The notes beneath the pieces were generated by a model that did no database searches, was not told the DNA's origin, and saw nothing but the letters and a program-made list of their open reading frames with translations. Made by a program: the position numbers and the translations under genes. A stretch of 64,000 nt of DNA from Candidatus Deferrimicrobiaceae bacterium (GTDB lineage: Bacteria > Desulfobacterota > Deferrimicrobia > Deferrimicrobiales > Deferrimicrobiaceae). The stretch is taken from positions 13,302-77,301 of the forward strand of contig DASXVV010000013.1 of NCBI GenBank assembly GCA_036504035.1, written 5' to 3'. Shown one piece after another: positions 1,784 through 16,590 of the stretch; positions within the stretch are counted from its first letter, which is position 1, and each line of letters starts with the position of its first letter.

Positions 1784-2329
1784 ATGCGTCATGCTGTCGA
1801 CCACCGGAAACTAGGCCGTAACCCGTCCCATCGAAAGGCGCTTCTGAAGAATCTCATGAACGCGCTGGTCTTGTCCGAACGGATCGAGACCACCGTTCCG
1901 AAAGCCAAGGAACTGCGTCGCCTCGCCGATCGCTTGATCACGCTCGGCAAGAAGGACACTCTCCACGCCCGACGCATGGTCTTCACGCTCCTGAGCGACA
2001 AGACCACGACCGACAAGTTGTTTTCCGGTCTTGCCGGGCGCTTCGCTGAACGGGCAGGCGGTTATACCCGTATCATCCGGACCGGTTACCGGGTCGGGGA
2101 CGGCGCCGAGATGGCCATCATCGAATATCTGCCTTCCGAAGAGAAGGAAGCCGCACCTGCGAAGGGCAAGAAGGCGCCCTCGAAGGGCGCCGCGAAGCCG
2201 GCAGTGAAGTCGGCAAAGGCCGCAACCAGGAAGCCGGCTTCCAAAGGGGCCGGCACCGCCAAGGAACCAGGCGCCCAGAAGGTCGCCCGCAAGAAGACCG
2301 TCTCTGCGCCCATCAAACGCGGGAGCTGA
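1784..2329 (+). CDS. rplQ: 50S ribosomal protein L17 with Lys/Ala-rich C-terminal extension
   Basis: 181 aa. MRHAVDHRKLGRNPSHRKALLKNL is the conserved L17 start. The last 60-odd residues are a low-complexity K/A/P/S tail. Confidence 0.95.
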   Translation: MRHAVDHRKLGRNPSHRKALLKNLMNALVLSERIETTVPKAKELRRLADRLITLGKKDTLHARRMVFTLLSDKTTTDKLFSGLAGRFAERAGGYTRIIRTGYRVGDGAEMAIIEYLPSEEKEAAPAKGKKAPSKGAAKPAVKSAKAATRKPASKGAGTAKEPGAQKVARKKTVSAPIKRGS

Positions 2330-2363
2330 ACCGGGATTCGCGAAAGCACAAGAAACTCTCATC

Positions 2364-2393
2364 AAAGGCGGCCCTTCGGGGTCGCCTTTTTTT
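2364..2393 (+). terminator. Rho-independent terminator of the alpha ribosomal operon
   Basis: GGCGGCCC-TTCG-GGGTCGCC hairpin (one G-U pair) followed directly by T7, 35 nt after the rplQ stop. Confidence 0.8.
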
Positions 2394-2415
2394 ATGCCCT
2401 GACGGCGGAAATCGC

Positions 2416-2445
2416 TTGACCGGAAGCGCTTCTCGTCCATATAAT
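2416..2445 (+). promoter_or_regulatory. Sigma70-type promoter for the fur-feoB array
   Basis: TTGACC (2416-2421), 18-nt spacer, TATAAT (2440-2445), about 40 nt upstream of the fur start. Confidence 0.6.
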
Positions 2446-2470
2446 GAAAATGAAATTCATGATCATGTCA
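2440..2470 (+). promoter_or_regulatory. Fur-box-like AT-rich operator overlapping the -10 element
   Basis: TATAATGAAAATGAAATTCATGATCATG. It has GATAAT-like hexamers (cATAAT, GAaAAT), CATgATC versus consensus CATTATC, and the palindromes TGAA-A-TTCA and CATGATCATG. It is the only strongly AT-rich stretch in this region. Confidence 0.55.
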
Positions 2471-2484
2471 GGCGGTGAAGCCCA

Positions 2485-2937
2485 TTGCAAAAGCTCCTGG
2501 AAAAGGTAGAAGAGCGGATACTTGCTTCCGGAGGAAAGCGGAGCAGAAGCCGCTCCGCGGTCATCGAGAGATTTTTTCGCTGCGGGAGGCACGTGTCGGC
2601 AGAGGAGTTGACGCGTCTCGTGAAGGATAGTTTTCCCGCCATAGGGTCCGTGACCGTCTACCGGACACTCAAGCTTCTCCTGAAGCTCGGATACGCCAAC
2701 GAGGTCGGCTTCGGGGAAGGGGTCACGCGATACGAGAGCAACCTGTCTTCGCATCATGACCACTTGGTCTGCCGGGCCTGCGGTGTCGTGACCGAGTTTA
2801 TCGATCCGAGGATCGAGGAATTGCAGACCGAGGTTGCGAAGGCGCATCGATTCAAGCCGACCATGCACCGGCTGGACATCTACGGATATTGCCGAAAATG
2901 CGAGCGCAAGCAGCGGACGGCCGGACCGGTGCTATGA
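2485..2937 (+). CDS. fur: Fur-family metalloregulator
   Basis: 150 aa. Winged-helix region (VTVYRTLKLL), HHDHLVCRACG metal site and a C-terminal CRKC pair. The stop overlaps the feoB ATG (ATGA). Confidence 0.85.
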   Translation: MQKLLEKVEERILASGGKRSRSRSAVIERFFRCGRHVSAEELTRLVKDSFPAIGSVTVYRTLKLLLKLGYANEVGFGEGVTRYESNLSSHHDHLVCRACGVVTEFIDPRIEELQTEVAKAHRFKPTMHRLDIYGYCRKCERKQRTAGPVL

Positions 2938-4907
2938 GCAATACAAGCCTCGCACAGGCCCCCATCGCCGAGAAGGTCATCCTGGTCGGCAATCCGAACG
3001 TGGGGAAGAGCGTCGTTTTCGGTCGTTTGACCGGCAGATATGTGAATGTTTCGAACTATCCTGGTACCACAGTCGAGATTACAAGAGGAGAGATACGCGA
3101 TCGGGGACGAGTCATCGAGATCATCGATACCCCCGGGGTCTACTCCCTCCACCCGATGTCCGAGGATGAACGCGTCACACGCGACATTCTCATGAATGAA
3201 CCCGGGGCGAAGATCCTCCAGGTTTGCGATGCCAAAAATCTGAGACGTTCCCTCATGATCACGGCCCAACTCTCCGAGATGCGCGTGCCCATGGCGGTCG
3301 TGGTCAACATGGTCGACGAAGCGCGGGAGCGGGGTGTCATGCCGCGGATCGACAGCCTGGGAGAGGACGTCGGCGTCCCAGTGCTCGGGATCGTCGCCGT
3401 TAGAGGGAAAGGCACCGACCGGCTGACGGGACTCATAGCGGGGGCCAGCGTCTCACGGGTCCGGATCGATTACGGGGAAATCATCGAGGCCGCCATTTCG
3501 GAGATGGAGCCGTTGATCCCAGAAGATGCGCCGATCGGGCGGCGCGCCCTTTCCCTGATGCTGCTTTCGGGGGACGATTCGCTTGCGGCATGGCTTCGGG
3601 CTTCTGTCACCGAAGACCGGGTCCGCGCGATGAACGAGATCCGGAACCGGCTCGTCGCGCGGGTCGGGGACGACGTGGGCTACATCGTCAACCAGAGGCG
3701 CGCCCAATGGACGGATCGCCTGGTGGAGCGGCTGGGGATCGAGCCGTCCGAACGACCGGCTCACGGTTATGCCCAGCGGCTCGGCCAATGGGCCATGGAT
3801 CCCGTCTACGGCATCCCGGTGCTGCTCGGAGTTCTTCTGGTCGCCTACGGATTCGTGGGGGCCTTCGGCGCCGGCACCTTGGTCGATCTCCTGCAGAACC
3901 GGCTGTTCGGGGAATTGGTGATTCCCGCGGTTACCCGGCTAGCCGATGCGGTCATCCCCTGGGAGATCCTTCGGTCATTCCTGGTCGGCCCATACGGGGT
4001 CATCTCGATGGCGCTATCGTATGCCGTCGCCATCGTGCTGCCGATCGTCGGGACCTTCTTCTTCTTCTTCGGAATCCTCGAGGATTCGGGCTATCTACCC
4101 CGTCTCGCGGTGATGGTCGATCGCTTGTTCAAACGGATCGGCTGCAACGGAAAGGCCGTTCTGCCGCTCGTGCTCGGCCTCGGGTGCGACACCATGGCCA
4201 CGCTGACGGCCCGGATTCTCGAATCCCGGAAAGAGCGGCTGATCGTCACGCTTTTACTCGCGCTCGGCATTCCATGCTCGGCACAGCTCGGGGTGATCCT
4301 AGGGATGCTGGGCGGCGTCGGCCTGCACGCGGCGCTCATCTGGACCGCAATCGTCGTCGGCGTCATCATCCTGGTGGGCTGGCTTGCCGCGAAAGTCATC
4401 CCGGGCCACTCGTCGGATTTCATCATGGAGATTCCGCCGATCCGGATGCCGCAGCTGGGCAACCTGGCAGTCAAGACGATGGCCCGCATCGAGTGGTATT
4501 TGCGGGAGGCGGTCCCGCTATTCGTGGTGGGAACCGTGATCCTTTTCGTTGCGGACAGGACCGGGGCGCTGGCTTTCATCGAACGGGTTTCCCAGCCTCT
4601 GATCGTGCGACTGCTCGATCTGCCTCCCAGCACCGCGGGCGTGTTCCTGATCGGGTTCCTTCGCAGGGACTACGGAGCGGCCGGGCTCTACCGCATGGCG
4701 CAGGCCGGTTTGCTGGACCACGTTCAGGTGCTCGTGAGCCTGGTTACGATGACGCTTTTCATCCCTTGCCTCGCGAATTTCCTGGTCATCATCAAGGAGC
4801 ACGGGATGAAGATCGCCGTAGGCATGGCGGTGTTCATCTTCCCGTTCGCGATCCTGGTCGGGGCCGCACTCAACTATGCGATCCGACATTTGGGAATTGT
4901 CCTGTAG
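2934..4907 (+). CDS. feoB: Ferrous iron transporter FeoB
   Basis: N-terminal G domain (GNPNVGKS, DTPG, NMVD) followed by a long polytopic permease region. I prefer ATG 2934 over the ORF-track start at 2889 because of the ATGA junction with fur. Confidence 0.93.
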   Translation: MSNTSLAQAPIAEKVILVGNPNVGKSVVFGRLTGRYVNVSNYPGTTVEITRGEIRDRGRVIEIIDTPGVYSLHPMSEDERVTRDILMNEPGAKILQVCDAKNLRRSLMITAQLSEMRVPMAVVVNMVDEARERGVMPRIDSLGEDVGVPVLGIVAVRGKGTDRLTGLIAGASVSRVRIDYGEIIEAAISEMEPLIPEDAPIGRRALSLMLLSGDDSLAAWLRASVTEDRVRAMNEIRNRLVARVGDDVGYIVNQRRAQWTDRLVERLGIEPSERPAHGYAQRLGQWAMDPVYGIPVLLGVLLVAYGFVGAFGAGTLVDLLQNRLFGELVIPAVTRLADAVIPWEILRSFLVGPYGVISMALSYAVAIVLPIVGTFFFFFGILEDSGYLPRLAVMVDRLFKRIGCNGKAVLPLVLGLGCDTMATLTARILESRKERLIVTLLLALGIPCSAQLGVILGMLGGVGLHAALIWTAIVVGVIILVGWLAAKVIPGHSSDFIMEIPPIRMPQLGNLAVKTMARIEWYLREAVPLFVVGTVILFVADRTGALAFIERVSQPLIVRLLDLPPSTAGVFLIGFLRRDYGAAGLYRMAQAGLLDHVQVLVSLVTMTLFIPCLANFLVIIKEHGMKIAVGMAVFIFPFAILVGAALNYAIRHLGIVL

Positions 4908-4917
4908 GAGAATCGAC

Positions 4918-5109
4918 GTGGAAAAGTTAAAGTGTCCACTTTGCCAGCATGAGATCGATCCGTCGTCGAGGGCATGCCGGACCGGTTGTCCGATGGGGAA
5001 GGATTGCTCGCTGGTCTGTTGCCCCAATTGCCACTATTCGTTTCCGATTCCTGAATCGCGCGTGATCAATTTCCTGAAGAAAATCTTTTCGAAAGGGAGC
5101 GGTCGATGA
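4918..5109 (+). CDS. Small Cys-rich protein (9 Cys, zinc-ribbon-like), unknown function
   Basis: 63 aa from GTG 4918, with AGGAG 7 nt upstream. Sequence VEKLKCPLCQHE...CRTGCPMGKDCSLVCCPNCH. No signal peptide or TM. Its stop overlaps the next gene's ATG (ATGA). Confidence 0.55.
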   Translation: MEKLKCPLCQHEIDPSSRACRTGCPMGKDCSLVCCPNCHYSFPIPESRVINFLKKIFSKGSGR

Positions 5110-5753
5110 CCGAATACGGACAGGACGAGATCCTTGAACTGATCTGGACGCTGAGGGAAAGCGGCCGACCGACGATGGAGACGCTGCTTCGCCATACGGA
5201 AGAAGAAAGCCCCGAAACGCTCCTCGACGACCTGGCGATGGGAGGATACATCGACGTCTCGCCGGAAGAGATCCGGATGACGAAATCGGGCGAGGAACGG
5301 GCACGCGGGATCATCCGGCGCCACCGGCTGGCCGAGGTCCTGCTCGCCAATCTATTCGACCTCGAGGACTCGCAGATCGAGAACAGTGCCTGCAAGTTCG
5401 AGCACGTCCTTTCCGAGGCCGTGACCGAGAGCGTGTGCACCTTCCTGGGACACCCGCCGGTCTGTCCCCACGGGAAGACGATCCCCCGGGGAGAATGCTG
5501 CGACCGGATCCGGACCGAGATCCTTCCGCTCGTCACGCGCCTGACGGACGCCGGCCTCGGGGATACCGTGCGGATCGTCTTCATCACCCCCAAGTCCCGA
5601 AAAAGGCTCGAAAAGCTCAGCTCCCTCGGCATCGTACCGGGAAGCCGGATCCGGCTCCTTCAGAGAAACCCGTCCTATGTCCTTCAAATCGGGGAAACGA
5701 CCGTGGCGGTCGATCGGGACATCACCGATGAAATATTCGTCAAGCGCGCTTAG
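5106..5753 (+). CDS. DtxR/IdeR-family metal-dependent regulator with C-terminal FeoA/SH3-like domain
   Basis: 215 aa. Contains RRHRLAEVLL and the CPHGKTIP metal-site region typical of DtxR family. The C-terminal GDTVRIV...LGIVPGSRIRLL is FeoA-like. Confidence 0.85.
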   Translation: MTEYGQDEILELIWTLRESGRPTMETLLRHTEEESPETLLDDLAMGGYIDVSPEEIRMTKSGEERARGIIRRHRLAEVLLANLFDLEDSQIENSACKFEHVLSEAVTESVCTFLGHPPVCPHGKTIPRGECCDRIRTEILPLVTRLTDAGLGDTVRIVFITPKSRKRLEKLSSLGIVPGSRIRLLQRNPSYVLQIGETTVAVDRDITDEIFVKRA

Positions 5754-6978
5754 GGCGCTCTGCGCCTCCCTTGCGGCGGTTCTCTTCCTCGAATGGAGCG
5801 GGTTGGCCGTTCCTTGCCGCGCGGAGGGGCGGGAACCGGTGCTCCTGCTGAAATACTCCGCCGCCTCGATTTCCGACGAGGACGCCCGGAAACGCTTTTC
5901 CCCGGTTCTCGCCGAGATCGAGAAAAGGCTCGATGTCCACGCGGCCTTGACAGCCAGGGGACGGGGCGATCTCGGGCCCGTGCTGGCTGAAATCGATGAT
6001 TCCACGCTGAAAGATATTTCGATCCGCGTTTCCGAGGCAAGCCGCAGGATGGATCGTCTCGAGAACAGGGAAGCGGAACGCGCGCTCTCGGGCATAGAGA
6101 AAGAGATGCGGAAGTATCGCTTCGGGGATGCGACCCGACCGATCCTTGCGGATGTTTGCCTGAAGTTGGGCACCTTGTCGATCTGGAACGGGAACAAGGA
6201 AGCGGCGCTCGCAAGTTTCCGGAAAGCCCGGTCCCTTGAGCCAGGCTTCGAACCGGACCCGGCCCTTCACTCCCCCCAGTTCCGCCAGCTTTGGGCCGAG
6301 ACCGGAAAAGGCGCTGCGGCCGAAGCCGAAATCCTGTTCGAATCCGTTCCGCAAGGGGCGCGCGTCTTCATCGATAATGCCGACCAGGGCGTGACGCCAC
6401 GACGCATCCGGGTCCCGGCCTCCCGGCCCGTGCGGGTTCGGCTCGAGCATCCGGGGTACCAGGCCTCCGTCGGGACGCGACAGTGGCTCGTGGGAGACAC
6501 TGAGCGGGTCGAGGTTCTCCTTTCGGGCGATCGCGAATCGAGGCTCGCCGGATTTTTCGAAGCGAACGGTTCCGAAATCCGGGAGGCGGGTCCGATCGTT
6601 TCCGAAATGGCGAAGGAGGCGGGGGTCGAAAAGCTCGCGTTCCTGATGCTCGGCCGTAGAGACGGCGTGCCCGAACTACGAGTTCTTTCAGCCTCGGCAT
6701 CCTCTCCGGAGCCTCGGCTCCTCGGAACGGTCCGCTTCCCGGAGGACGAGAAGGGGTATTCCTCGAATGCCTCCCGCATTACGGCCTTGCTGGCGGAAGC
6801 AGGGTGGCCATCGAAGACCGCCGGGAAGAAAGCCCAGGAAAGGCCATGGTATTATAGTTGGTGGTTGTTGACGGGGGTCGGATTGCTGGCGGCCGGTGCT
6901 GCCGCGGCCTTGAGTGGGGGGGGAGGCGGCGGTGGGGGCGGCGGGACGTCAACCAGCCCGACCAGCGTCAGCTTCTGA
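5728..6978 (+). CDS. Secreted PEGA-domain protein with C-terminal TM helix and poly-Gly tail
   Basis: ATG 5728 gives a signal-peptide-like N-terminus (MKYSSSALRALCASLAAVLFLEW...AEG). PEGA-like segment FESVPQGARVFIDNADQGVTPRRIRV. C-terminus WWLLTGVGLLAAGAAAAL then G10 then TSTSPTSVSF. Confidence 0.7.
   Translation: MKYSSSALRALCASLAAVLFLEWSGLAVPCRAEGREPVLLLKYSAASISDEDARKRFSPVLAEIEKRLDVHAALTARGRGDLGPVLAEIDDSTLKDISIRVSEASRRMDRLENREAERALSGIEKEMRKYRFGDATRPILADVCLKLGTLSIWNGNKEAALASFRKARSLEPGFEPDPALHSPQFRQLWAETGKGAAAEAEILFESVPQGARVFIDNADQGVTPRRIRVPASRPVRVRLEHPGYQASVGTRQWLVGDTERVEVLLSGDRESRLAGFFEANGSEIREAGPIVSEMAKEAGVEKLAFLMLGRRDGVPELRVLSASASSPEPRLLGTVRFPEDEKGYSSNASRITALLAEAGWPSKTAGKKAQERPWYYSWWLLTGVGLLAAGAAAALSGGGGGGGGGGTSTSPTSVSF
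6916..6945 (+). repeat. Poly-glycine coding tract including a G8 homopolymer (6916-6923)
   Basis: ggg ggg gga ggc ggc ggt ggg ggc ggc ggg read directly in the PEGA-protein frame. Confidence 0.9.
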
Positions 6979-7007
6979 TCATCCGCCGAAAGGACGTTCG
7001 AATCCAA

Positions 7008-8366
7008 GTGCATCCCCTCCTACTCGCGTTGCTGATCCTGATCCAGTCTTCCCTGGCCGTCGCTGCCGGTACGCCCGCGGGCGAGACCGTCATCAAGGAT
7101 CTGAAGAACACGAAGATCATCCGTTCCAACGAACAACCGCACCAGATCCTCAACGAAGCGTGCCTCGCGTGCCACCCCAAGGACAAGTTCAATTTCTGGC
7201 TGCTCATCTACAAGGGCAAGCAACCGAGTGTCCTCGTCGAATCACAGGACGGAAAGCCGGGCCTCCAGGCGGACGGCACCGGTTCGAAACAGGCGCCGGT
7301 CAATAAGTACAATTCACATGAAACACTCGCCTGCAGCTTCTGCCATTTCGACAATCCGACCGCAACAACCGCAAAATTCATCATGGAAATCCCGGACCTG
7401 TGCCGGCTTTGCCACCCGGGGATGGAAACTCACAACATGCCCGAAGGAGAGCAGGCGAAGAGCGTCGCCGCGGGAATCGAAGCCGGCAAGCTGCCCGGAC
7501 GCGAAGGGAAGATCCTTTGCACGACCTGCCACAAGCTCCATGATTCGATCTACGGCATGCGTGAGGCCTACGCCAGAATCGTGTATGAGGGGAAGATTCC
7601 GAATCCCCACGGAAATCGCTTCCTCTGTTTCGCCTGTCATCCAGGCAAGATCAAGGAAGGGACCGAAGTTCCGCTTGGCGAGGGGCGCGACATCGAAAAA
7701 CTGTGCAACAGCTGCCACGGGCGCCCGGGCGTGCCCAAGGCCCCCCACGTGGTCGGGGTGACCTCCTCCTCCGAAAGCACATGGCGAATGGATTACCTGG
7801 GCTATCCGCTCGAACAGGGGAAGCTGATCTGCACGACCTGCCATGACGAGGTTTCGCATCGCAAGCCCGATCCGGCGAATCCACGGTTCCTCCGTGGCGG
7901 CCCTTACGCGGAGCAGGACCAGTTCTGCTACCGGTGCCATCTCGAGGACAAGGATCAACTGAGCAATCCCCACCGCCAGATCGATCCTTTCGGCCGGATA
8001 CGCATCGAATCCTGCCGTTTCTGCCACAAGAAGGATCCCGATCTCGCGAAGCCGCGGAATCCCAAAAATCTCGAGATGGTGGGCGAAGAGGTCAGCATCT
8101 GCTCCAATTGCCACCCCGACCGGCCCCATCCCGACAGGGACCACAACGTCGCGATGAGCGGTGAGAAGCTTGCAAGAAAGGTCGCCTACGAACAGAGGCA
8201 CCAGGTCACGTTGCCGCTCGGCGATGGCGACATGGTTCGGTGCAGCACGTGCCACAACCCCCACGCAAAGGGCGTGCTCAAGGGCGAGTCCGGCGTCGGG
8301 GCCGGGTCAAAATGGCGCGTCCCGGATTTCCGGGAAGTTTGTGCTCCCTGTCACGGTCGTTTCTAG
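7008..8366 (+). CDS. Multiheme cytochrome c, 12 CXXCH motifs
   Basis: GTG 7008 gives the signal peptide VHPLLLALLILIQSSLAVAAG. I count 12 CXXCH: CLACH, CSFCH, CRLCH, CTTCH, CFACH, CNSCH, CTTCH, CYRCH, CRFCH, CSNCH, CSTCH, CAPCH. The ORF-track start at 6858 overlaps the upstream gene and encodes R/G-rich junk. Confidence 0.9.
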   Translation: MHPLLLALLILIQSSLAVAAGTPAGETVIKDLKNTKIIRSNEQPHQILNEACLACHPKDKFNFWLLIYKGKQPSVLVESQDGKPGLQADGTGSKQAPVNKYNSHETLACSFCHFDNPTATTAKFIMEIPDLCRLCHPGMETHNMPEGEQAKSVAAGIEAGKLPGREGKILCTTCHKLHDSIYGMREAYARIVYEGKIPNPHGNRFLCFACHPGKIKEGTEVPLGEGRDIEKLCNSCHGRPGVPKAPHVVGVTSSSESTWRMDYLGYPLEQGKLICTTCHDEVSHRKPDPANPRFLRGGPYAEQDQFCYRCHLEDKDQLSNPHRQIDPFGRIRIESCRFCHKKDPDLAKPRNPKNLEMVGEEVSICSNCHPDRPHPDRDHNVAMSGEKLARKVAYEQRHQVTLPLGDGDMVRCSTCHNPHAKGVLKGESGVGAGSKWRVPDFREVCAPCHGRF

Positions 8367-8399
8367 ACGGTCTGGACGTATCATCCCATGGAGGCTTGA

Positions 8400-9068
8400 A
8401 TGATCGAAATATTCAGAGCGGGCGGATTTGTCATGTACCCGATGGTGCTGCTGTCGATTCTCACTGTAGCCATCGGGATCGAACGCGTTATCTACCTTCG
8501 CAGGGCGCGCATGGACGCAGATTCGTTCATGGGGGTGATCAACGGGTTCCTGGAGCGCAATTCGCTCGACGAAGCCAACAAGCATTGCGAGTCGACTTCG
8601 GGGCCAGTAGCCACGATCATCAAGGCGGGACTCAAGAACCAGCGTCGGGGGCGCGCCGAGGTCATCCGGTCGATCGAGGACGCGGGCGCACTGGAAGTCG
8701 CCCAACTCGAAAAGGGCATCCTGATCCTCCAGACCATCTCGAAGATCGCCCCGCTGATCGGCCTGTTCGGCACGGTCACCGGCATGATCGCCTCCTTCCG
8801 GGCGATCGGGGCCACCGCCGGCGGCGGGAATCCCGCCAGCGTCGCGACCGGCATCTCCGAAGCGTTGATCGCCACCGCTTCAGGCCTCGTCGTCGCCATC
8901 CCGGCCTACTTCCTGTCGTTCTATTTCCTCGACCGGGTCAACAGGTTCATGCTCGACATGCAGAAGAGCTCCATCCGCTTCCTGGATGCATTGGGCGACC
9001 TCGAGGAAAACGTCGCGGAGCGCTCGCAGCGCTTCGATACGATCGGGGGGGACTACCTTGAAGTTTAA
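8400..9068 (+). CDS. exbB: MotA/TolQ/ExbB-family proton channel
   Basis: 222 aa, three TM segments, conserved IAPLIGLFGTVTGMI and ALIATASGLVVAIPA helices. GGAGG RBS upstream. Confidence 0.9.
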   Translation: MIEIFRAGGFVMYPMVLLSILTVAIGIERVIYLRRARMDADSFMGVINGFLERNSLDEANKHCESTSGPVATIIKAGLKNQRRGRAEVIRSIEDAGALEVAQLEKGILILQTISKIAPLIGLFGTVTGMIASFRAIGATAGGGNPASVATGISEALIATASGLVVAIPAYFLSFYFLDRVNRFMLDMQKSSIRFLDALGDLEENVAERSQRFDTIGGDYLEV

Positions 9069-9471
9069 GAGGACGGTGCCCAACGACGACGAAGGGATCC
9101 CGATCGTCAACCTGGTCGACGTCCTGTTCCTCCTGATCGTCTTCTTCATGGTGTCCACCGTCCTGAGCTACGACAAGGGGATGGGCGTGAAGCTGCCCGA
9201 GACCGCCGCCGGCGCCGGGCGAATCTCGAACAAGGGGGTTAGCGTGCTTATCGACCGCGATGGGCGCGTCTTCGTCGATGGCGCCAAGGTGACGATCGAT
9301 CAGGTAGGCGCCAAGGTCAAGGAGCGCCAGAAGATCGGGGGGACGAACGTGATCCTCAAGTCCGATCGCGACACCCGCTACCAGTCGATTGCGTCGGTGA
9401 TGGATCGACTCCTCGAAGTCGGTATCAGCGACCTTTCCCTTCCCGTGATCGAGAAGGGGGGAGGTCAGTAA
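9058..9471 (+). CDS. exbD: ExbD/TolR-family protein
   Basis: TTG 9058 overlaps the exbB stop. Single TM IVNLVDVLFLLIVFFMV carries the conserved Asp, followed by a periplasmic domain. The 8986 track start lies inside exbB. Confidence 0.88.
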   Translation: MKFKRTVPNDDEGIPIVNLVDVLFLLIVFFMVSTVLSYDKGMGVKLPETAAGAGRISNKGVSVLIDRDGRVFVDGAKVTIDQVGAKVKERQKIGGTNVILKSDRDTRYQSIASVMDRLLEVGISDLSLPVIEKGGGQ

Positions 9472-9475
9472 TATT

Positions 9476-10423
9476 TTGCCTGGCCGTCGGTTGCGCTCCA
9501 TCCTGGAACCCGTCTTGTACGTCGGGATTGCAGCGCTGCTCCATTCAGCGCTGTTCCTGATCCCGGGCGTGGCGCCCGCCAAGAAAGAGGCAGTGACGAC
9601 GCAGCGGGGAGTGCGCGTGCGCGCTTTCGTCGAGAGGCCTGTGCTTCCTCCGCCTCCCGCCGTCGTTCCGGCGTCGGCGTCGGTTCCAGCCAGGTTTGCG
9701 CCGCCACCCATCGCCACGGCAAACCTGCCTTATTCCATTCCCGGGGCCTCTAAGGCGGGGGTCGTGAACCCCGCCGGCGGGGGAGGGAATCCCGGGGGAG
9801 GCGCCCCGGCGACCGGCGTCACGACTTCCGGACCCGGAGGGCCGGCCCCTGCACCGTCGGTCGCAAGGCCGGGCCCGTCGGAACCATCGAAATTCGCCAA
9901 TTTCCTGGCGGGTCTGCAATCCTCCGGGATTCGAGGCGCGGCCCGGGATGCAGCCGAAAAGAACCAGCGCGCCTACAAGGGGACCGGCAGCGGCACGGGA
10001 AACGAGGGCTGGGGCAGCGGATCAGGGGGGCGGGGCGGGGGGACCGGCGGCGGATCGGGGACGGGGTCGGGGACCGGGAGCGGAAGCGGGAGTGGGAGAG
10101 GCAGCGCCGGCTACATGGACCCTCGGGTCAAGATGGTCGTGACGAGCTACCCGTCGACAGACATCGAGCGGCACTACACCCAGGTTCCATACCCGAACCT
10201 CAAGATCAAGCAGAGCAAGTTTACGGCGGGATGGATGAACGTCTACTTGAAGCTGAGGACAAACTCCGAGGGGGCAATCGTATCGACCGAAGTCCTCAGG
10301 CCCGAAACAGAAGGTGTCCTGGAAAAGCAGTTCCTAGACCAGGTCAAGCGCGAAGTCTCCAAGTGGGACTTCGACCCGAAAGAGGCGGAAATCCACGTCG
10401 ACGTGAGGTTCTATGTTGAGTAG
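9476..10423 (+). CDS. TonB-like energy transducer (TolA-like alternative)
   Basis: 315 aa, TTG start. N-terminal TM, Pro-rich then Gly/Ser/Thr-rich linker. The C-terminal domain has the YP...G.V...KWDFDP pattern of TonB C-terminal domains. Confidence 0.75.
   Translation: MPGRRLRSILEPVLYVGIAALLHSALFLIPGVAPAKKEAVTTQRGVRVRAFVERPVLPPPPAVVPASASVPARFAPPPIATANLPYSIPGASKAGVVNPAGGGGNPGGGAPATGVTTSGPGGPAPAPSVARPGPSEPSKFANFLAGLQSSGIRGAARDAAEKNQRAYKGTGSGTGNEGWGSGSGGRGGGTGGGSGTGSGTGSGSGSGRGSAGYMDPRVKMVVTSYPSTDIERHYTQVPYPNLKIKQSKFTAGWMNVYLKLRTNSEGAIVSTEVLRPETEGVLEKQFLDQVKREVSKWDFDPKEAEIHVDVRFYVE
9980..10111 (+). repeat. Gly/Ser/Thr low-complexity tandem coding repeat in the TonB-like linker
   Basis: Translation GTGSGTGNEGWGSGSGGRGGGTGGGSGTGSGTGSGSGSGRGSAG. 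The nucleotides are reiterated GGN-AGC/ACC units. Confidence 0.85.
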
Positions 10424-11177
10424 GGGAATGGCTTTGGTGCCTATCCTGGCGTTGACGGCCTTGTTGTCTTCCGCCCATGCGGCAGACCAGGAAGGTTGCC
10501 TGTTCTGCCATCGGCTGGAACTTGCGCGCACAGGAGCGAGGGTTTCCGATCTTCGGGTCACCGAACCCCCCGGCAAGTTCCACGACGGGGTTTACTGCTC
10601 CGACTGCCACCCTGACGCGAAAATGGCCCCGCACACCGTCACGCCGGGCGCCGCCCGCTGCATCGACGAGTGTCATGCCAACGGCGCGGGGAACGTCCCT
10701 GAGAGCCACCGTCGTGCCGCATTCGGGGGAACGACCGAATCGCACAGGCACGCGGCGATGCCCTCGTCTCCGTGCCTGTTCTGTCACAGGGCAGATGACC
10801 CCCCTTCGGCCGCGTTTCCCGCCTCCGCCCGTTGCAAGGGGTGTCACGCGGGAGAAGCGCTGTCGGTTGCCGAAGGCGTTCACGGGGGCCTCGCGACCAA
10901 CCGCCCCGGCGGCGCCTGCCCCGCTTGCCACGTCCCGCATCCATCGGGGATGGCCGGCAGTCGCACGGACAATGTTGCGACCTGCCGGGGAGCCGGCTGC
11001 CATGAACAAGTGACCGATCGGATGAAGGCGCTGGGAGGCCACGGGAAGGGGGCGCCCGGCGAACGCCCGAAACGCATCGGGGCGCTCCTGTTGTTCTTGG
11101 TTGCCTGCCTGGCCGGCCTTATCCCCGGTCGATGGCTTTGCGGGAACGGGCCGCTGCCCGAGGGGGATGAACGATGA
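10413..11177 (+). CDS. Multiheme cytochrome c (5 CXXCH + CX3CH + CX4CH) with C-terminal TM anchor
   Basis: Signal peptide MLSRGMALVPILALTALLSSAHA. Motifs CLFCH, CSDCH, CIDECH, CLFCH, CKGCH, CPACH, CRGAGCH. C-terminal helix IGALLLFLVACLAGLI. The start overlaps the tonB-like stop. Confidence 0.88.
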   Translation: MLSRGMALVPILALTALLSSAHAADQEGCLFCHRLELARTGARVSDLRVTEPPGKFHDGVYCSDCHPDAKMAPHTVTPGAARCIDECHANGAGNVPESHRRAAFGGTTESHRHAAMPSSPCLFCHRADDPPSAAFPASARCKGCHAGEALSVAEGVHGGLATNRPGGACPACHVPHPSGMAGSRTDNVATCRGAGCHEQVTDRMKALGGHGKGAPGERPKRIGALLLFLVACLAGLIPGRWLCGNGPLPEGDER

Positions 11178-12100
11178 ACTGGATCAACCCGCCCCAAACC
11201 GTCAAAAGGTATTCGCTGCAGCAAATCCTTCAGCATGTCGCGGCGTTGCTGCTGGCGCTGCTCCTGATCCTTTCCGCACTGGCCCCGGGGTTCTGGCGCG
11301 GAATCCACGGTACCATCGGGCTGGCCTCGACCGTTTTGTTCCTCGCCCACCTCTTTTCGTTGCTCGTGATCGGAGTCCGCCACGACGTGGCGATCGACCA
11401 TATCGCCTTTCTTCCGACCGGGACGCGCGAGACTACACCCGAGGCAAGGGCCGCTGCGGGGAAATTCACGCTTCCCGAAAAGCAAGATTACTGCCTGATC
11501 CTGTGCTGGAGCTTCCTCGCCATCACGAGCGGGATTGTACTCCACTGGCCCGGGCGTTTCGGCGTCCCGGGGCCGACGGAATACGCGTGGCTCCGAATAA
11601 CCCACACAGCCATGGGAGCCGGCTGGGCTCTTCACATTATCGGATGCCATGTTCCATTCCGGTTCATCCACGCCCGGGCCGGATTCCGTTGGTCGATTTT
11701 CACGGGGAAAGTGCCGCTGGAATCGGCCGAATCCCGCGGAGGATGGGTCGCTTCTCTCGTGGAAACAGGGATTCTCGTCCCGGTCCCGACGGTGCAGCAT
11801 GGGGCGGCTGAACGCGAAACCGTCCAGGTCAGGGAAATGCTCGACGAAGGAAACCGTCGGACCCGGGAAGGGCGTTATGAGGAGGCGGCGTCCATCTTCG
11901 AGGAAGCCTTGCGCCTTTACCCGGAATATTCGCAGGCGCGTTTCAACCTCGCCGTGTCCCGGATCCGGCAGGGGCGACCGGACCTGGCTTCCGAACAGCT
12001 AAGGGTCTTTCTTGAATCCGACCCGTTCAACCCGATGGCCGGGAAGGCACGGGAACTCCTCGACGGCATCTCCAGGCCGGATGAAGGAGGCACGCCATGA
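11174..12100 (+). CDS. Four-TM b-type cytochrome (FdnI/HydC-like) fused to a C-terminal TPR domain
   Basis: 308 aa. His residues lie in TM1 (LQHVAA), TM2 (FLAHLF) and TM4 (ITHTAMGAGWALHIIGCH), as in diheme b subunits. The C-terminal EGRYEEAASIFEEALRLYPEYSQARFNLAV... is TPR-like. ATGA junctions on both sides. Confidence 0.7.
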   Translation: MNWINPPQTVKRYSLQQILQHVAALLLALLLILSALAPGFWRGIHGTIGLASTVLFLAHLFSLLVIGVRHDVAIDHIAFLPTGTRETTPEARAAAGKFTLPEKQDYCLILCWSFLAITSGIVLHWPGRFGVPGPTEYAWLRITHTAMGAGWALHIIGCHVPFRFIHARAGFRWSIFTGKVPLESAESRGGWVASLVETGILVPVPTVQHGAAERETVQVREMLDEGNRRTREGRYEEAASIFEEALRLYPEYSQARFNLAVSRIRQGRPDLASEQLRVFLESDPFNPMAGKARELLDGISRPDEGGTP

Positions 12101-12630
12101 GACAGGTGGCCGACCTTCTTGCGGTGATCCTCGCCGTCGCCATCTTCGTCCTGATAGCCCGGGGTGCCGTCCCGGGGATTTCCTCGGCCCCGCTCGTTCC
12201 TGCGACCGACGACGGCTCGTATTACCATCCCGGGAAAAACCGCCGCACCCTCACGGACCAGAAGGCCTGCATCGCCGAAGGCTGCCACGGCGATGCCCCC
12301 CACAAGCGGGATAAGGCGCTGGCCCCGTTCCGGAACCTCCACGCGAACTACGTCGCCTGCCCGGTCTGCCATGCTCCCGACGGTTCGACGCGGTTTACCG
12401 GCAGCCGGGACGGGAACGGACGCGTGCACCTGCGATACACGGGGAGCGTGCCTGCGACCGGTCCCAAGGGCCACCCGCCTCTCGGCAACCCGGGGGGGTG
12501 CAGGCGCTGCCACTCCGAGCCGGGGATGCGCTCCCTGAAGGAGCACGGTCTCTCCACGCTACCGCCCGGATATGCCGATCCGATCGCTTTGCGCATGCAC
12601 GAAGGAGGCGCCAGGCAGTGGAATCCTTGA
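12097..12630 (+). CDS. N-terminally anchored small cytochrome c (CX4CH + 2 CXXCH)
   Basis: 177 aa. TM ADLLAVILAVAIFVLIA. Motifs CIAEGCH, CPVCH, CRRCH. Confidence 0.8.
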   Translation: MRQVADLLAVILAVAIFVLIARGAVPGISSAPLVPATDDGSYYHPGKNRRTLTDQKACIAEGCHGDAPHKRDKALAPFRNLHANYVACPVCHAPDGSTRFTGSRDGNGRVHLRYTGSVPATGPKGHPPLGNPGGCRRCHSEPGMRSLKEHGLSTLPPGYADPIALRMHEGGARQWNP

Positions 12631-13520
12631 CGCTTCGCCGCATCGGCGCTGCGCTCATCGGCGGGCTATTGCTCCTAATCCATGTGGGGTCGGCTCCGGC
12701 CGCGGAGGCCATCCGGAAGCCGCACGCGCTGTCGCTGCGCAAAGCCGGTGGCAGGACGCTTTCCTTTCCATCAGACGTCGCGATCGATCGAAGGGGCGTC
12801 GTATTCCTTCTCGACAGCGGAAACCGGTCGATCGCGATCTACTCCCCCAAAGGCGAATTCATACGCGAGATTCAGGGGCGCGGGATCTGGAAAGACCCGT
12901 TGGGCGTAGGCGTCACTTCGGATGGCAACATCCTGATTGCCGACGGGGAAGGAGGCAGGGTGTTCGAGATCGACCTCGCCGGGCGTCTGAAAAAAGAGTA
13001 TGTCGCTGGGAAAGGCGCGCGCCTGACGGGCGTCTGCGCCTACGGCGATTCGATCTACGTCGTCGATAACCGGAATCACAGGATCGTCATGTTCAAGCGA
13101 AAAGGGGGCGGACAGGAAAGCTGGGGGAGGAAGGGGGATCACGCCGGGGAATTCGACACGCCTTTCCGGATTGCGGCCGATGCGAGCGGGCGCATCTTCG
13201 TGACCGATGTCATGAATGCCAGGATCCAGTGGTTCTCGGCCTTCGGGCAGTACCTCGGAACCCTGAAGCGATTCGGCGCCGGGGCAGGCAGGATCTTCCG
13301 GCCGACCGGGCTGGCAATCGATAATCGCGGCCGGATCTGGGTCGGGGACAGCTATACCGGTCTCGTACAAGCCTTCGACGAAAAAGGCAATTTCGCACAG
13401 GCAGTCTCTGCCGATTCCAGGCCATCGATCTTCGGAGACCCGTCCGGTCTTGCCGATGGGGCCGAAGGGATCTGGATCGCGGACCAGCGTGACGGCGTGC
13501 TCGCATTGTCCAGGCAATAA
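12618..13520 (+). CDS. Secreted NHL-repeat beta-propeller protein
   Basis: GTG 12618 lies 10 nt after GAAGGAGG. Signal peptide ...LLLLIHVGSAPAAEA. Six repeats of the P.G(V/I)A.D..G.I.V.D..N.RI type. Confidence 0.85.
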   Translation: MESLTLRRIGAALIGGLLLLIHVGSAPAAEAIRKPHALSLRKAGGRTLSFPSDVAIDRRGVVFLLDSGNRSIAIYSPKGEFIREIQGRGIWKDPLGVGVTSDGNILIADGEGGRVFEIDLAGRLKKEYVAGKGARLTGVCAYGDSIYVVDNRNHRIVMFKRKGGGQESWGRKGDHAGEFDTPFRIAADASGRIFVTDVMNARIQWFSAFGQYLGTLKRFGAGAGRIFRPTGLAIDNRGRIWVGDSYTGLVQAFDEKGNFAQAVSADSRPSIFGDPSGLADGAEGIWIADQRDGVLALSRQ

Positions 13521-13544
13521 TCACCCATGGAAGAAGAGGTGTCG

Positions 13545-13751
13545 ATGGAACCGAGAAAGTGGGAATACGGGCAGATCTTCGTCAAGCGGCCCGAGATCTT
13601 CGGCGGGCTTCCCAAGACGGGGCTTGAGATGGACAAGCTGAACCGGGCCGGTTCGGAGGGATGGGAGATGGTCGGAACGGTTCCCTTCACCCTCCCCACA
13701 GGCGAGGTCCGCGGGGCTTTCATCCTGTTTAAACGGGAAATCGCAGGGTAG
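13545..13751 (+). CDS. DUF4177-like small protein
   Basis: MEPRKWEYGQIFV...LNRAGSEGWEMVGTVP...AFILFKRE pattern. ATG 13545 has a better RBS than ATG 13527. Confidence 0.65.
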   Translation: MEPRKWEYGQIFVKRPEIFGGLPKTGLEMDKLNRAGSEGWEMVGTVPFTLPTGEVRGAFILFKREIAG

Positions 13752-13760
13752 CCGGACGCC

Positions 13761-16580
13761 GTGCCTGCCGCAAGGACCATCGCTATCCTGCTTCTGATGG
13801 GGGTGTTGGCGACCATGGCGCCAGGCGCCCGGGCCGCAGATGTTTACGACCAGGAAAAGTGCTCGCTTTGCCACATCCGGCAAAGCGTCTTTTTCGACGG
13901 CCGGTTCCTCTCCCCCGGACACGCGAAGGAGTTCGGCGAGGAACGGATCTGCTCCAGCTGCCACAACGGGGTCGTCTCCGACCAGCGGGGCATTCTCTGG
14001 CGGGGAGCCCAGCACCCCGCCCCGGGCGGAGGTGAGCAGAGGCGCTGCTCCCGCTGCCATTCCCCTCACACGAAGGGAGGCGGGTGGGGCGTTCTCGCAG
14101 GGACCTCCGCCTCGATCCGTCGCAATTCAGAAGCCCAGTGCGTCGGGTGCCACCAGGCGTATTCCACCCGGCAGGGCGCCATCCACATGAATCGCTTTCC
14201 CGAGGGTGGTTGCAAGGAATGCCACCGTGCCCATGGGGGAGTGGGGAAATCGCTGCTTCGGGAGGGCAGGGAAACGCTCTGCCTGAGATGCCACCCAACG
14301 AAGGATGCCGGCGGCAAGGGGGGACATCCGACCGCCTTGGCCGGGGAGGAATCCGGGCGAGGGCGCCCGTTTCCGGAATGCATATCCTGTCATCCCGTCC
14401 ACCCCCGCCCCGGCGCCGTCGTGAAGGGGGGAGCGTCCTTGTGCGCTACCTGTCATCCTGCCCTGAAGGAGGGGGATGGCAAGCCGAATCATCCGGGTGT
14501 CGGGGATTGCCTATCGTGCCACGTGTTCCATTCCCGGACGGGGGAAGGCGGGCGCGCGTTCCGCGGACGCGAGATCCGTCCCGAGATCCTTTGCGCGCGA
14601 TGTCACGCATCCTACAAGAGCGACACCCCGAAACAGGCGCGCGAGAAGGGGATGCACGTCACCAAGGTCGGCGAACGACAAGACCTCTGCTTCCGCTGCC
14701 ACACGATCCACAAGGCTGCGGCCGGCACGGCGCTTTTGCTCTCGGCCAAGGGTTATTCCTGCTTCGAGTGCCACGATCAGCAGAACAGCATCAGCGAAAC
14801 CCGCGGGATCGTGTTGTCGCACCCCGTCTTCGAGCGGGTCGAGAAGAACCGGTTCGAATCCGCCTTCGGAAAGGGAAAACGCCTTGTCCTGGGGCCCAAG
14901 GGGGAGATCGTCTGCCGGACCTGCCATTCCGTCCACAAGGCGGCGCCCGGAACGGCGTTGATCGTCGGGGGCGTGGGGGAGAGCGCCATCTGTTTCTCCT
15001 GCCATGAGGGAATGCGGGGGAAGGCGCACGTCGATCCCAAGATCGCCAAGGCCGGTGCGGGAAAGGATTTCGGCTGCGACATCTGCCACCCGGTGCACGG
15101 AAGGAACACGCTCGTGGATCCCGGCAAGGGGGAATCCCCGGATGATCCATGGAAAAAACTCTGCTCCGATTGCCACCCTCGCGTGTCGATGCACCTCGAA
15201 GGTGATGCCGACCGGTCCACGCGCCGCCCTGCCGACCTGCCGGCATTCGATACTCGCGGCCGTGCCGTCCGGATCGGGACGATATCGTGTCCGACCTGCC
15301 ATCAGCCGCACGGGATGCTCGACAGCCCCCGTCGGCTCAGGAAGGACTATCGTCCATCCGGCTTCTTGTGCACATCCTGCCACCCTGACAGGGAAAAACT
15401 CGCGCTGACGCCCCACGACCTGCGAGGGATTGCAGGGGAAGGGTTCTGCGAACCCTGCCATGTCCCGCACGGCGGGACATCGCCCTGGATGCTCGGGATC
15501 ACGCCGGATCCGGCAGCCAGCGGGCCGGGAGAGGCGATATGCAGATCGTGCCACAGGGAAAAAGGGTTGGCTTCGCCGGTGGCCAAGGCGGGGCACCCCA
15601 TGAACATCATGGTTGGGCGACCGATTCCGACGGTCTATCCTCTTTCGAATGTCAAAGACGGGGGCGTGGCCGGGATGCTCGTCTGCTCCTCCTGCCATGA
15701 CGTCCACGGAACGGGATTCGTCCCGGTCGGGACCGGGACAGGGAAGCTTCTCCGGATTCCCGCCGACCGACCCGAGGAGACATTGACGCGGAACGGCGAA
15801 TGCGTCCCCTGCCATGTGAAGATCTCCTCGCATGCGAAAGCCGATTGCATCTCGTGTCATCCTCCGCACCAGGACACGAAACCGGATTCGGGATGCGCCG
15901 GATGCCACGAAAGGAAGGAGGCCGGGACGGCCGCCCGGCACATCGGCAAGGGAACGGGATGTGTCGCCTGCCACCGGGTACACCCAAAGGAAGGGGGAGG
16001 CGAAAAGAAGCCGGAGCGTGTCTGCATCGGATGTCACCCGAAGACCGAACGGATCGTCGGGACCCCGCATGGGGATATCGAAGGGGGGCCGTGCGGAAGC
16101 TGTCATCCCGCCCACAAGGACCTGCCCCCGCCCGAGGTCCGGCGAAAGCCTTCCGATGAACTGTTCCTTCCGAACCTGCCTTGCCTTCGCTGTCACCAGG
16201 AGGGAGGGATTGCGCCGTTGCCGCCTCTGTCCGAGCATCCCAGCCGCAAGAGGAAGGTTCCGACCAATTACGGGGGTTCCGTCATCCTCGAGACGTTAAT
16301 CCCGATGGTCGGTCGTTTCCTGGAAGCGGGAAAACCAATGTTTCCGCTCTACGACGAAGGTCTAACGCCTGGGAACAACGGACGGATCGCTTGTCTGACC
16401 TGCCACGATCCCCACGCCGGCATCGGTATGTCCCCGGACGGCAAGGACCGGGCCGCGGGGGCTTATCTGCGCGACCCGTCCGACAATTTCATCGCTGAAA
16501 TCTGCGAGGGATGCCACCGCGGGGAAGCCTCGGAGCATGTCCGAAAATTCCACACGCTCCCGCGCAAGGAGATCGATTAA
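13761..16580 (+). CDS. Giant multiheme cytochrome c, 30 CXXCH motifs
   Basis: 939 aa. GTG start gives signal peptide MPAARTIAILLLMGVLATMAPGARA. I count 30 CXXCH, many as CXXCHxxH (for example CISCHPVH, CRTCHSVH, CPTCHQPH, CLTCHDPH). Confidence 0.92.
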   Translation: MPAARTIAILLLMGVLATMAPGARAADVYDQEKCSLCHIRQSVFFDGRFLSPGHAKEFGEERICSSCHNGVVSDQRGILWRGAQHPAPGGGEQRRCSRCHSPHTKGGGWGVLAGTSASIRRNSEAQCVGCHQAYSTRQGAIHMNRFPEGGCKECHRAHGGVGKSLLREGRETLCLRCHPTKDAGGKGGHPTALAGEESGRGRPFPECISCHPVHPRPGAVVKGGASLCATCHPALKEGDGKPNHPGVGDCLSCHVFHSRTGEGGRAFRGREIRPEILCARCHASYKSDTPKQAREKGMHVTKVGERQDLCFRCHTIHKAAAGTALLLSAKGYSCFECHDQQNSISETRGIVLSHPVFERVEKNRFESAFGKGKRLVLGPKGEIVCRTCHSVHKAAPGTALIVGGVGESAICFSCHEGMRGKAHVDPKIAKAGAGKDFGCDICHPVHGRNTLVDPGKGESPDDPWKKLCSDCHPRVSMHLEGDADRSTRRPADLPAFDTRGRAVRIGTISCPTCHQPHGMLDSPRRLRKDYRPSGFLCTSCHPDREKLALTPHDLRGIAGEGFCEPCHVPHGGTSPWMLGITPDPAASGPGEAICRSCHREKGLASPVAKAGHPMNIMVGRPIPTVYPLSNVKDGGVAGMLVCSSCHDVHGTGFVPVGTGTGKLLRIPADRPEETLTRNGECVPCHVKISSHAKADCISCHPPHQDTKPDSGCAGCHERKEAGTAARHIGKGTGCVACHRVHPKEGGGEKKPERVCIGCHPKTERIVGTPHGDIEGGPCGSCHPAHKDLPPPEVRRKPSDELFLPNLPCLRCHQEGGIAPLPPLSEHPSRKRKVPTNYGGSVILETLIPMVGRFLEAGKPMFPLYDEGLTPGNNGRIACLTCHDPHAGIGMSPDGKDRAAGAYLRDPSDNFIAEICEGCHRGEASEHVRKFHTLPRKEID

Positions 16581-16590
16581 ACTGGCACCC

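Follow-up and report, generated by a model that had tools for sequence, protein, structure and literature searches.

The DNA analysed here is a stretch of 64,000 nucleotides (nt) from Candidatus Deferrimicrobiaceae bacterium (contig DASXVV010000013.1 of assembly GCA_036504035.1, 3.17 Mb and 100% complete), referred to below, at its full length, as the window, and the subject of this study is a group of three genes at positions 8400-10423 that encode an ExbB-like proton-channel subunit, an ExbD-like protein and a TonB-like adaptor in the midst of genes for multihaem cytochromes. Receptor-mediated import is the known task of Ton-type motors, and maintenance of envelope integrity that of Tol motors. 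A preliminary description of the locus regarded these three genes as an orphan motor wedged between cytochrome genes. The three open reading frames (ORFs) and their coordinates were reproduced in our ORF table, which equally confirmed their placement between the 12-haem and 7-haem cytochrome genes and the 11-nt overlap of the tonB-like stop with the start of the 7-haem gene (10413). Together with their neighbours they form the following array, termed here the cassette.

7008..8366, + strand: 12-haem periplasmic c-type cytochrome (gene 1), with a Sec signal peptide and 12 CXXCH motifs
8400..9068, + strand: exbB-like gene, ExbB/TolQ-family proton-channel subunit of 222 amino acids (aa) with three membrane helices
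9058..9471, + strand: exbD-like gene, 137 aa, with a TTG start and an 11-nt overlap with exbB
9476..10423, + strand: tonB-like adaptor gene, 315 aa, with a membrane helix, a linker and a C-terminal domain of predicted TonB fold
10413..11177, + strand: CbcA-like 7-haem c-type cytochrome with a signal peptide and a C-terminal membrane anchor (Pfam Cytochrom_c3_2)
11174..12100, + strand: CbcB-like four-helix cytochrome b with a C-terminal TPR domain (TPR families of Pfam; orthologues match PF01292, Ni_hydr_CYTB)
12097..12630, + strand: small membrane-anchored 3-haem cytochrome with 2 CXXCH and 1 CX4CH motifs and an N-terminal membrane helix
12618..13520, + strand: secreted NHL-repeat beta-propeller (PF01436, 88 bits), its position conserved in the cassette
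13527..13751, + strand: DUF4177-like protein of 74 aa without signal peptide (PF13783, E 7e-5, just under the cut-off)
13761..16580, + strand: 30-haem secreted c-type cytochrome of 939 aa with 30 CXXCH motifs (Paired_CXXCH_1, 174 bits), the last gene of the cassette

The genes for ExbB, ExbD, the TonB-like protein, the 7-haem cytochrome, cytochrome b and the 3-haem cytochrome are chained by overlapping starts and stops, and the motor genes are translationally coupled with the 7-haem and cytochrome b genes. The start of exbD had been placed at ATG 8986; it is likely TTG 9058, because the resulting length of 137 aa fits the orthologues (134-141 aa) and leaves an 11-nt overlap with exbB. The 12-haem gene and exbB share one reading frame and are separated at 8367-8399 by a stop codon and 33 nt.

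Membership of the first two proteins in the motor superfamily is clear from Pfam, the ExbB-like protein matching PF01618 (MotA/TolQ/ExbB) with 108 bits (E 2.6e-31, cut-off 22.9) and the ExbD-like protein matching PF02472 with 86 bits. The conserved membrane Asp of the latter sits in the helix IPIVNLVDVLFLLIVFFMV, so that its previously proposed identity and Asp residue are borne out, its start being the part that had to be corrected. The narrower NCBIfam models gave another picture: the ExbB-like protein scores 108 against TolQ (cut-off 221) and 83 against ExbB TIGR02797 (cut-off 206), both far under the equivalog cut-offs, and the ExbD-like protein reaches 40-46 with the ExbD models (cut-offs 123-216) and a higher value with TolR, still under its cut-off. 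Identity to the own TolQ of the genome amounts to 37% (over 139 aa) and that between the own TolR and the ExbD-like protein to 25%. TolQ and TolR fit best and every equivalog cut-off is missed; both proteins are superfamily members standing outside the two named branches, Tol and Exb.

For the adaptor, the layout described earlier, with an N-terminal membrane helix, a Pro-rich and then Gly/Ser-rich linker and a C-terminal domain, is seen again in the alignment of homologues. None of the TonB-like variants matches any Pfam profile, TonB_C included, and the sole NCBIfam match of the 315-aa protein is a weak one to the leptospiral LIC10042_TonB (E 0.006); about 70 homologues are available, none of which has a precomputed Pfam domain. 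His23 of the membrane helix is invariant in both alignments (A1 and A2, 39 and 25 sequences), and a near-invariant Ala19 stands where the SHLS motif has its Ser. The Pro-rich and Gly/Ser-rich stretches of the linker are of low complexity, and a conserved helical hairpin is located at about 139-167. The C-terminal domain (218-315) is well conserved and ends in the invariant strand HVDVRFYVE, which is the most conserved part of the protein in the alignments. The corresponding strand of TonB is the one that pairs with the TonB box, and given the invariance seen here a conserved partner strand is to be expected.

The distinction between TonB and TolA, for which the preliminary description had proposed profile searches and structure prediction, was decided by the second of these, sequence profiles alone giving no family match. 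A profile of the C-terminal domain run against the sequences of the PDB retrieved TonB chains at non-significant E values of 0.6-1 only, and the matches of the whole-protein profile in the same sequence set were discarded as artefacts of the Gly-Ser linker. In the alignment-based AlphaFold2 model (all AlphaFold models were built without haems or membranes) residues 218-315 have a predicted local distance difference test score (pLDDT) of 76-97, mostly 85-97. When searched with Foldseek against the PDB, ranks 1-16 were all occupied by TonB-type C-terminal domains with a probability of 0.85-0.99 and a TM-score on the target of 0.26-0.68 (0.41-0.68 for isolated domains). Among the top matches are FusB, TonB bound to BtuB, FhuA, FoxA and TbpA, the TonB proteins of Helicobacter and Pseudomonas, and HasB, whereas TolA domain III turned up at ranks 26 and 50 only (probability 0.28 and 0.14). 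The Foldseek E values are modest because two thirds of the query are disordered; the ranking itself is unambiguous. The third protein is thus predicted to have the TonB fold and not that of TolA, and with its membrane His, spacer and TonB-fold head it would work like TonB while failing the sequence definition of that family. Taken with the two channel proteins, the three genes appear to make up a real, very divergent Ton-type motor driven by proton-motive force.

A profile search for the C-terminal domain among 1.84 billion proteins yielded a family of 64 representatives, in which the domain is always C-terminal and the protein never an ordinary TonB; no similarity between this domain and the ordinary TonB of the genome was detected by BLAST. 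Across the phylum it was found in 13 of 401 genomes, spread over six families. As an outlier, a HEAT-repeat protein of 2076 aa encoded outside a cytochrome cassette ends in the same domain (L078:6393-12623, GCA_024276115.1), and an outlier of this type is seen also at G093:C59:12327-12620; in Deferrisoma camini the cassette is followed by a gene for a 427-aa protein that looks HEAT-repeat-like by eye only. A second adaptor subfamily of 442-457 aa has only the C-terminal domain in common with the shorter form (44% identity). Its linker (L030:10001-11371, with relatives L055, L056 and L069) contains two tandem, highly conserved beta-sandwich domains with pLDDT 80-94, which among PDB structures are matched best by the CnaB-type stalks of pilins and adhesins from Gram-positive bacteria, and such predicted stalks would suit a rigid, force-bearing arm. 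The idea that the central domain of the long form is a fused PEGA protein was rejected, as BLAST and hhalign gave non-significant results and the fold is a CnaB-like beta-sandwich; short-form lineages carry a separate upstream PEGA protein instead.

The cassette has a fixed order, namely 12-haem, ExbB, ExbD, TonB-like, 7-haem, cytochrome b-TPR, 3-haem, NHL, DUF4177 and 30-haem, which recurs in at least five different chromosomal neighbourhoods, that of D. camini included, and with only two exceptions the TonB-like genes of the loci examined have exbBD on one side and these cytochrome genes on the other. Scanning of metagenome contigs furnished 42 loci, all fitting this order, with ExbD upstream in each of the 20 loci that have room for it and the 7-haem gene downstream wherever the flank exists, two loci whose copies are frameshifted or truncated being included in this count. 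In six related genomes, one of another family, the order FeoB, DtxR-like, PEGA and 12-haem through 30-haem is fully kept (the organism names of close homologues, Candidatus Deferrimicrobiaceae, are database labels). Two NCBI assemblies (NCBI and JGI contigs) with 41-45% identity have the same block in the same chromosomal place, preceded by rpsM-rpsK-rpsD-rpoA-rplQ and followed by ftsB, the GGDEF gene and argS. The neighbourhood of the long subfamily (L030) is devoid of fur, feoB, dtxR and PEGA, and its core is kept, with a 12/13-haem cytochrome, ExbB, ExbD, the TonB-like adaptor, an anchored cytochrome of 5+2 haems, a TPR fusion of cytochrome b (PF01292), the 3-haem protein, NHL, a 66-aa protein and the 30-haem cytochrome. 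Altogether the core without fur/feoB is present in D. camini, L030, L077, L079, L080, G092 and G053. D. camini represents a complete-genome carrier, in which WP_025321258.1 is annotated as a MotA/TolQ/ExbB family protein and WP_025321260.1 as a hypothetical protein, and it is a cultured Fe(III) reducer (PMC10052568).

No receptor gene stands beside the cassette in any locus examined, and no porin- or barrel-sized or unassigned ORF was found within it in the window, L030, L046, L055, L056, L069 or D. camini. Where a genome has the TonB-like gene, its extra MotA/ExbB paralogue is none other than the ExbB of the cassette. Judged by this conserved synteny, the qualification of the motor as an orphan was wrong, since it is integral to the cassette, and very probably it is a dedicated part of it, neither housekeeping nor stray. 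The earlier suggestion that the client of the motor is encoded in the same cluster is strongly backed by synteny over several unrelated neighbourhoods.

The other proteins of the cassette are mainly cytochromes, with 52 haem motifs in total (12 + 7 + 3 + 30). The 12-haem gene is always found immediately upstream of exbB, and its product matches the Paired_CXXCH_1, Cytochrome_C7 and MtrC/MtrF domains of Pfam. The motifs of the 7-haem cytochrome are 5 CXXCH, 1 CX3CH and 1 CX4CH; the cytochrome b encoded next to it has His residues in the first and second membrane helices and two in the fourth, the latter helix being read by eye. In Geobacter sulfurreducens CbcBA (GSU0593-0594) acts as an inner-membrane bc-type quinone oxidoreductase, composed of a four-helix dihaem b subunit and a separate seven-haem c subunit with a C-terminal membrane anchor (10.1101/2021.04.15.440034), and by analogy of architecture the 7-haem and cytochrome b pair can be read as a CbcBA-like quinol:cytochrome oxidoreductase. 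An orthologue of the 3-haem protein shows a weak match to NapC/NirT. The DUF4177-like protein is probably cytoplasmic, and an orthologue of 66-68 aa occupies its position in all long loci. Orthologues of the 30-haem cytochrome measure 920-1124 aa and have 29-30 haem motifs wherever these were counted. Comparison of the 12-haem and 30-haem cytochromes with the PDB by phmmer was uninformative.

Two features of the cassette proteins may indicate where the motor makes contact with its surroundings. The cytoplasmic C-terminal tail of the cassette ExbB, IGG[DEQ]Y[LI]E[VIF] (9030-9068), is invariant in 33 distinct orthologues of 46-96% identity and missing from the own TolQ of the genome. The C-terminus of ExbB is cytoplasmic in known structures, and C-terminal peptides are commonly clamped by TPR domains. 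Because the TPR domain of cytochrome b (11810-12100) is preceded by an even number of helices and the distribution of charges puts both ends inside, it is predicted to be cytoplasmic as well; on these grounds the stator may dock on cytochrome b, with the ExbB tail lying as a peptide in the TPR groove. On the periplasmic side, a TonB-box-like N-terminal strand was sought in the mature 12-haem, 7-haem, 3-haem, NHL and 30-haem proteins, and a recurring motif was found in the 12-haem cytochrome only. It is a beta-prone segment a few residues past the signal peptide, aligned across 24 orthologues, which reads TKIIRSNEQPH in the window, YRLVEPSDPAH in D. camini and TSIFPSTEEPH in members of the long subfamily; the common pattern h-h-x-[SP]-x-[DE]-x-x-H is moderately conserved and makes this strand a candidate only. 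The N-termini of the mature NHL proteins are poorly conserved.

In the lineage of the window the cassette is preceded by genes of iron metabolism that are not part of its core.

2416..6978, + strand: lineage-specific upstream context outside the core, with a promoter-like site, fur, feoB, a small Cys-rich ORF, a dtxR/feoA fusion and PEGA

Profile matches in this segment comprise FUR, FeoB, Fe_dep_repr_C with FeoA, and PEGA. The promoter-like site at 2416-2445 (11 of 12 matches) lies past the rplQ terminator and is the sole strong one within 2300-19200; with TTGACC, a spacer of 18 nt and TATAAT it is near consensus (2364-2470). Its -10 region runs into GAAAATGAAATTCATGATC, which by eye matches the 19-bp Fur box in 15 of 19 positions and precedes fur and feoB; a search with the Fur-box consensus allowing up to 3 mismatches returned nothing. 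No convincing internal terminator was detected in 2300-19200. The fur/feoB context is not found at the cassette copies of L030, L077, L079 and D. camini. The PEGA protein (5728-6978), whose gene overlaps the end of the dtxR-like gene, has at its C-terminus a hydrophobic helix, ten glycines and TSTSPTSVSF, and its occurrence is confined to lineages with fur and feoB ahead of the cassette. Beyond the other end of the cassette (16591-19078), an ftsB/DivIC-like gene and a gene for a GAF-GGDEF diguanylate cyclase with many membrane helices always come after the 30-haem gene in this lineage; elsewhere both are outside the core cassette.

The best explanation of these data, to which we assign a probability of roughly 60%, is that a Ton-type motor is dedicated to a CbcBA-like quinol-to-cytochrome conduit and performs mechanical work on a partner encoded in the cassette. 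It takes as established the identity and fold of the parts, the translational coupling of their genes, the strictness of the synteny and the fact that the motor is independent of both receptors and Tol-Pal, and from these we infer the client, the docking and the mechanical role. Judging from architecture, the CbcBA-like cytochrome b and the anchored 7-haem cytochrome would oxidise menaquinol and pass the electrons to the 3-haem, 12-haem and 30-haem cytochromes. The motor would dock on this quinol-oxidising module, possibly via the ExbB tail held by the TPR domain of cytochrome b, and the TonB-like arm, spanning the periplasm, would convert proton flow through ExbB-ExbD to mechanical work. The invariant strand at its end might bind a cassette partner by beta-strand augmentation, candidates being the 12-haem cytochrome through its N-terminal strand, the NHL propeller and the 30-haem cytochrome, and the step powered in this way might concern the outer membrane, as threading, positioning or gating of a haem wire through a channel encoded outside the cassette. 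A bolder version, in which the motor is an obligate element of an extracellular or trans-periplasmic conduit, its stator docks on cytochrome b by contact of the ExbB tail with the TPR domain, its arm directly grips a multihaem cytochrome or the NHL protein, and proton-motive force inserts, extends, retracts or gates the 30-haem wire with no dedicated porin, is conceivable and more doubtful than probable.

Several observations weigh against the dedicated motor as just set out. None of the cassette copies includes a gene for an outer-membrane protein, which leaves the outer-membrane step a conjecture. The array in the window begins with a Fur-box-like promoter and feoB, and this fits iron acquisition in this lineage as well. 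The genome encodes two TonB-dependent receptors and four proteins with TonB_C and has no other exbBD, so that these proteins, too, could be energised by the stator of the cassette. It is topology prediction alone that puts the TPR domain in the cytoplasm, and the candidate strand of the 12-haem cytochrome is moderately conserved, the long subfamily having an inserted haem site just upstream of it.

The stator shortage just mentioned is an argument for a different role, that of a general Ton energiser, i.e., a housekeeping stator for the two receptors and the four ordinary TonB proteins, the TonB-like adaptor being another paralogue among them. Genome-wide, three genes of the MotA/ExbB family (tolQ on contig C8, motA within motA-motB on contig C9 and the one in the window) and two of the ExbD family were counted, and besides TolQR the only ExbBD set is that of the cassette. 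Of the receptors, a BtuB-like protein is encoded on C4 (C4:42027-43979, in the segment 42027-44999) beside ABC-transport genes and a normal TonB, and a Plug-domain protein on C2 (C2:182938-184818; genome G000), both without adjacent exbBD, and four proteins match Pfam TonB_C; fur, feoB and the Fur-box-like promoter upstream of the cassette are in line with such a function. The proposed census of receptors thus left room for sharing of the stator, yet relatives speak otherwise: a receptor is present in all 41 of them and the TonB-like gene in 8, while ten genomes of the same family (G003-G008, G016, G019, G023 and G024), several of them 97-100% complete, possess receptors and one TolQ-type MotA/ExbB gene and lack the cassette. 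As these ten keep receptors with a TolQ-type motor only, receptors in this clade are independent of the cassette motor; and since receptors and TonB_C proteins exist without exbBD of their own and ten genomes have the TolQ-type stator alone, TolQR may routinely energise TonB in this clade. The general energiser is opposed as well by recurrence of the cassette without fur/feoB and without an adjacent receptor in any examined locus, by the dissimilarity of the adaptor C-terminal domain to the TonB of the genome in BLAST, and by the cassette-specific ExbB tail, which points to a specialised partner; on balance we find it unlikely. A re-wired Tol system, already considered in the preliminary description, would consist of a TolQRA analogue, TolB being substituted by the NHL propeller and CpoB by the TPR domain. 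The best NCBIfam matches of the stator are indeed TolQ and TolR, a beta-propeller and a TPR domain are encoded downstream, and strand augmentation is how TolA engages the TolB propeller at its N-terminus. But contig C8 harbours a complete tolQ-tolR-tolA-tolB-pal-ybgF (cpoB) locus scoring at or near equivalog level (TolQ 232 against a cut-off of 221, TolR 134/127, TolB 330/343, Pal 126/125, YbgF 106/90), so that the separate Tol-Pal locus asked for earlier exists, the set in the window is not the only tolQRA of the organism, and the window motor is not its Tol system. In addition, the predicted fold is TonB (0.85-0.99) with TolA domain III far below (0.14-0.28), the TPR domain comes after an even number of helices and by prediction lies in the cytoplasm, whereas CpoB is periplasmic, no Pal-like gene belongs to the cassette, and the mature N-termini of the NHL proteins vary. 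The Tol-like architecture is therefore largely refuted and hardly credible. Of the earlier statement that the 64 kb encode no TonB-dependent receptor, Pal or TolB, the part on receptors holds, as neither barrel nor Plug domain was found on the whole contig of the window and the only matches of the genome are those on C4 and C2; TolB and Pal lie on C8, and the ORFs of the window were not all scanned for OmpA-like domains.

Two further explanations were weighed. An action confined to the inner membrane, whether as a scaffold for assembly or stabilisation (on peptidoglycan or periplasmic cytochromes) or as a regulated proton path that tunes how the CbcBA-like complex conserves energy, agrees with the translational coupling of the motor genes to the 7-haem and cytochrome b genes, with the conserved ExbB tail alongside a predicted cytoplasmic TPR and a cytoplasmic DUF4177 protein, and with the lack of an outer-membrane component in any cassette. 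It accords poorly with a periplasmic linker of 180-330 residues, the two rigid beta-sandwich stalks that the long form adds and a TonB-fold head whose edge strand is invariant, which look like a reach-and-pull arm, and a role of ExbBD as a redox-coupled proton path has no precedent known to us; we consider it rather unlikely. Under reductive iron acquisition, the cytochromes would reduce Fe(III) outside the cell or in the periplasm, the motor would energise entry of iron through the outer membrane and FeoB would import Fe(II). Its attraction is that in this lineage the cassette always comes after fur, feoB, dtxR/feoA and PEGA, and that one strong promoter-like site with a Fur-box-like sequence is followed by no convincing internal terminator; however, the core stands without feo and fur in at least four other neighbourhoods, D. 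camini among them, and 52 haems would be a costly response to iron starvation, which makes this explanation quite improbable.

In the cassette, a third, very divergent motor lineage has become fixed in a respiratory multihaem-cytochrome operon with neither receptor nor porin. Should it act on the cytochromes, a mechanical, proton-driven step would have to be added to models of extracellular electron transfer, the access of a porin-less cassette to the cell surface would be accounted for, and TonB-fold domains would gain a new class of clients; were the motor even obligate for the conduit, this would amount to a new electron route over the Gram-negative envelope and to the first non-transport, respiratory client of a TonB-like protein. 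The matter is relevant to iron cycling by MBNT15/Deferrimicrobia, a widespread group without cultured members, and the presence of the cassette in the cultured D. camini makes the idea directly testable.

Compared with known systems, the motor follows the TonB-ExbB-ExbD complex of the E. coli type in its gene order exbB, exbD, tonB-like and in the families of its first two proteins, MotA_ExbB and ExbD; its ExbD has the membrane Asp, and its adaptor combines the membrane His with a long spacer in the periplasm and a TonB-fold head. It departs from that complex in that its ExbB and ExbD remain far under the equivalog cut-offs and its adaptor fails TonB_C and forms a small family of its own, with Gly/Ser-rich linkers, a hairpin or two CnaB-like stalks and the invariant C-terminal strand; the tail of ExbB is a further difference, and the motor is never located beside a TonB-dependent receptor, being embedded among multihaem cytochromes. 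With Tol-Pal it has in common a stator of the same superfamily, best matched by TolQ/TolR of NCBIfam, and a propeller protein encoded downstream, in contrast to which the adaptor fold is TonB-like, homologues of TolB, Pal and CpoB are lacking in the cassette, and Tol-Pal has its separate genomic locus. Motors of 5:2 composition are engaged in tasks other than import, such as GldLM in type IX secretion and gliding, AglRQS in Myxococcus and PocAB-TonB3 in Pseudomonas; they similarly join a proton-driven stator to a periplasm-spanning arm for secretion, motility or localisation, and to our knowledge none of them is associated with respiratory cytochromes.

Among electron-transfer systems, CbcBA has the same pair architecture as the genes at 10413-12100, whereas in the window the b subunit ends in a TPR domain and translational coupling joins the pair to a Ton-type motor. 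Porin-cytochrome conduits are exemplified by MtrCAB, Pcc/Ext of Geobacter, PCC3 and Uet, and their clusters encode a beta-barrel porin (PMC10734462, 10.1101/2022.05.06.490989). They resemble the cassette in the combination of periplasmic and very large multihaem cytochromes, often with NHL propellers (UetH, UetI), that are assumed to carry electrons across the envelope; unlike them, the cassette never encodes a porin and has a proton-driven motor instead. In the literature on ExbB/ExbD/TonB with multihaem cytochromes, MBNT15 and Deferrisoma no description of the cassette was found, and the MBNT15 genome paper lists cytochrome clusters with no mention of TonB, ExbB or a motor (PMC9386147). Placed among these systems, the window seems to contain a motor of known kind with a possibly new kind of client, and its fixed place in the cassette, also in D. 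camini, suggests that this type of motor serves an electron-transfer machine and not nutrient import.

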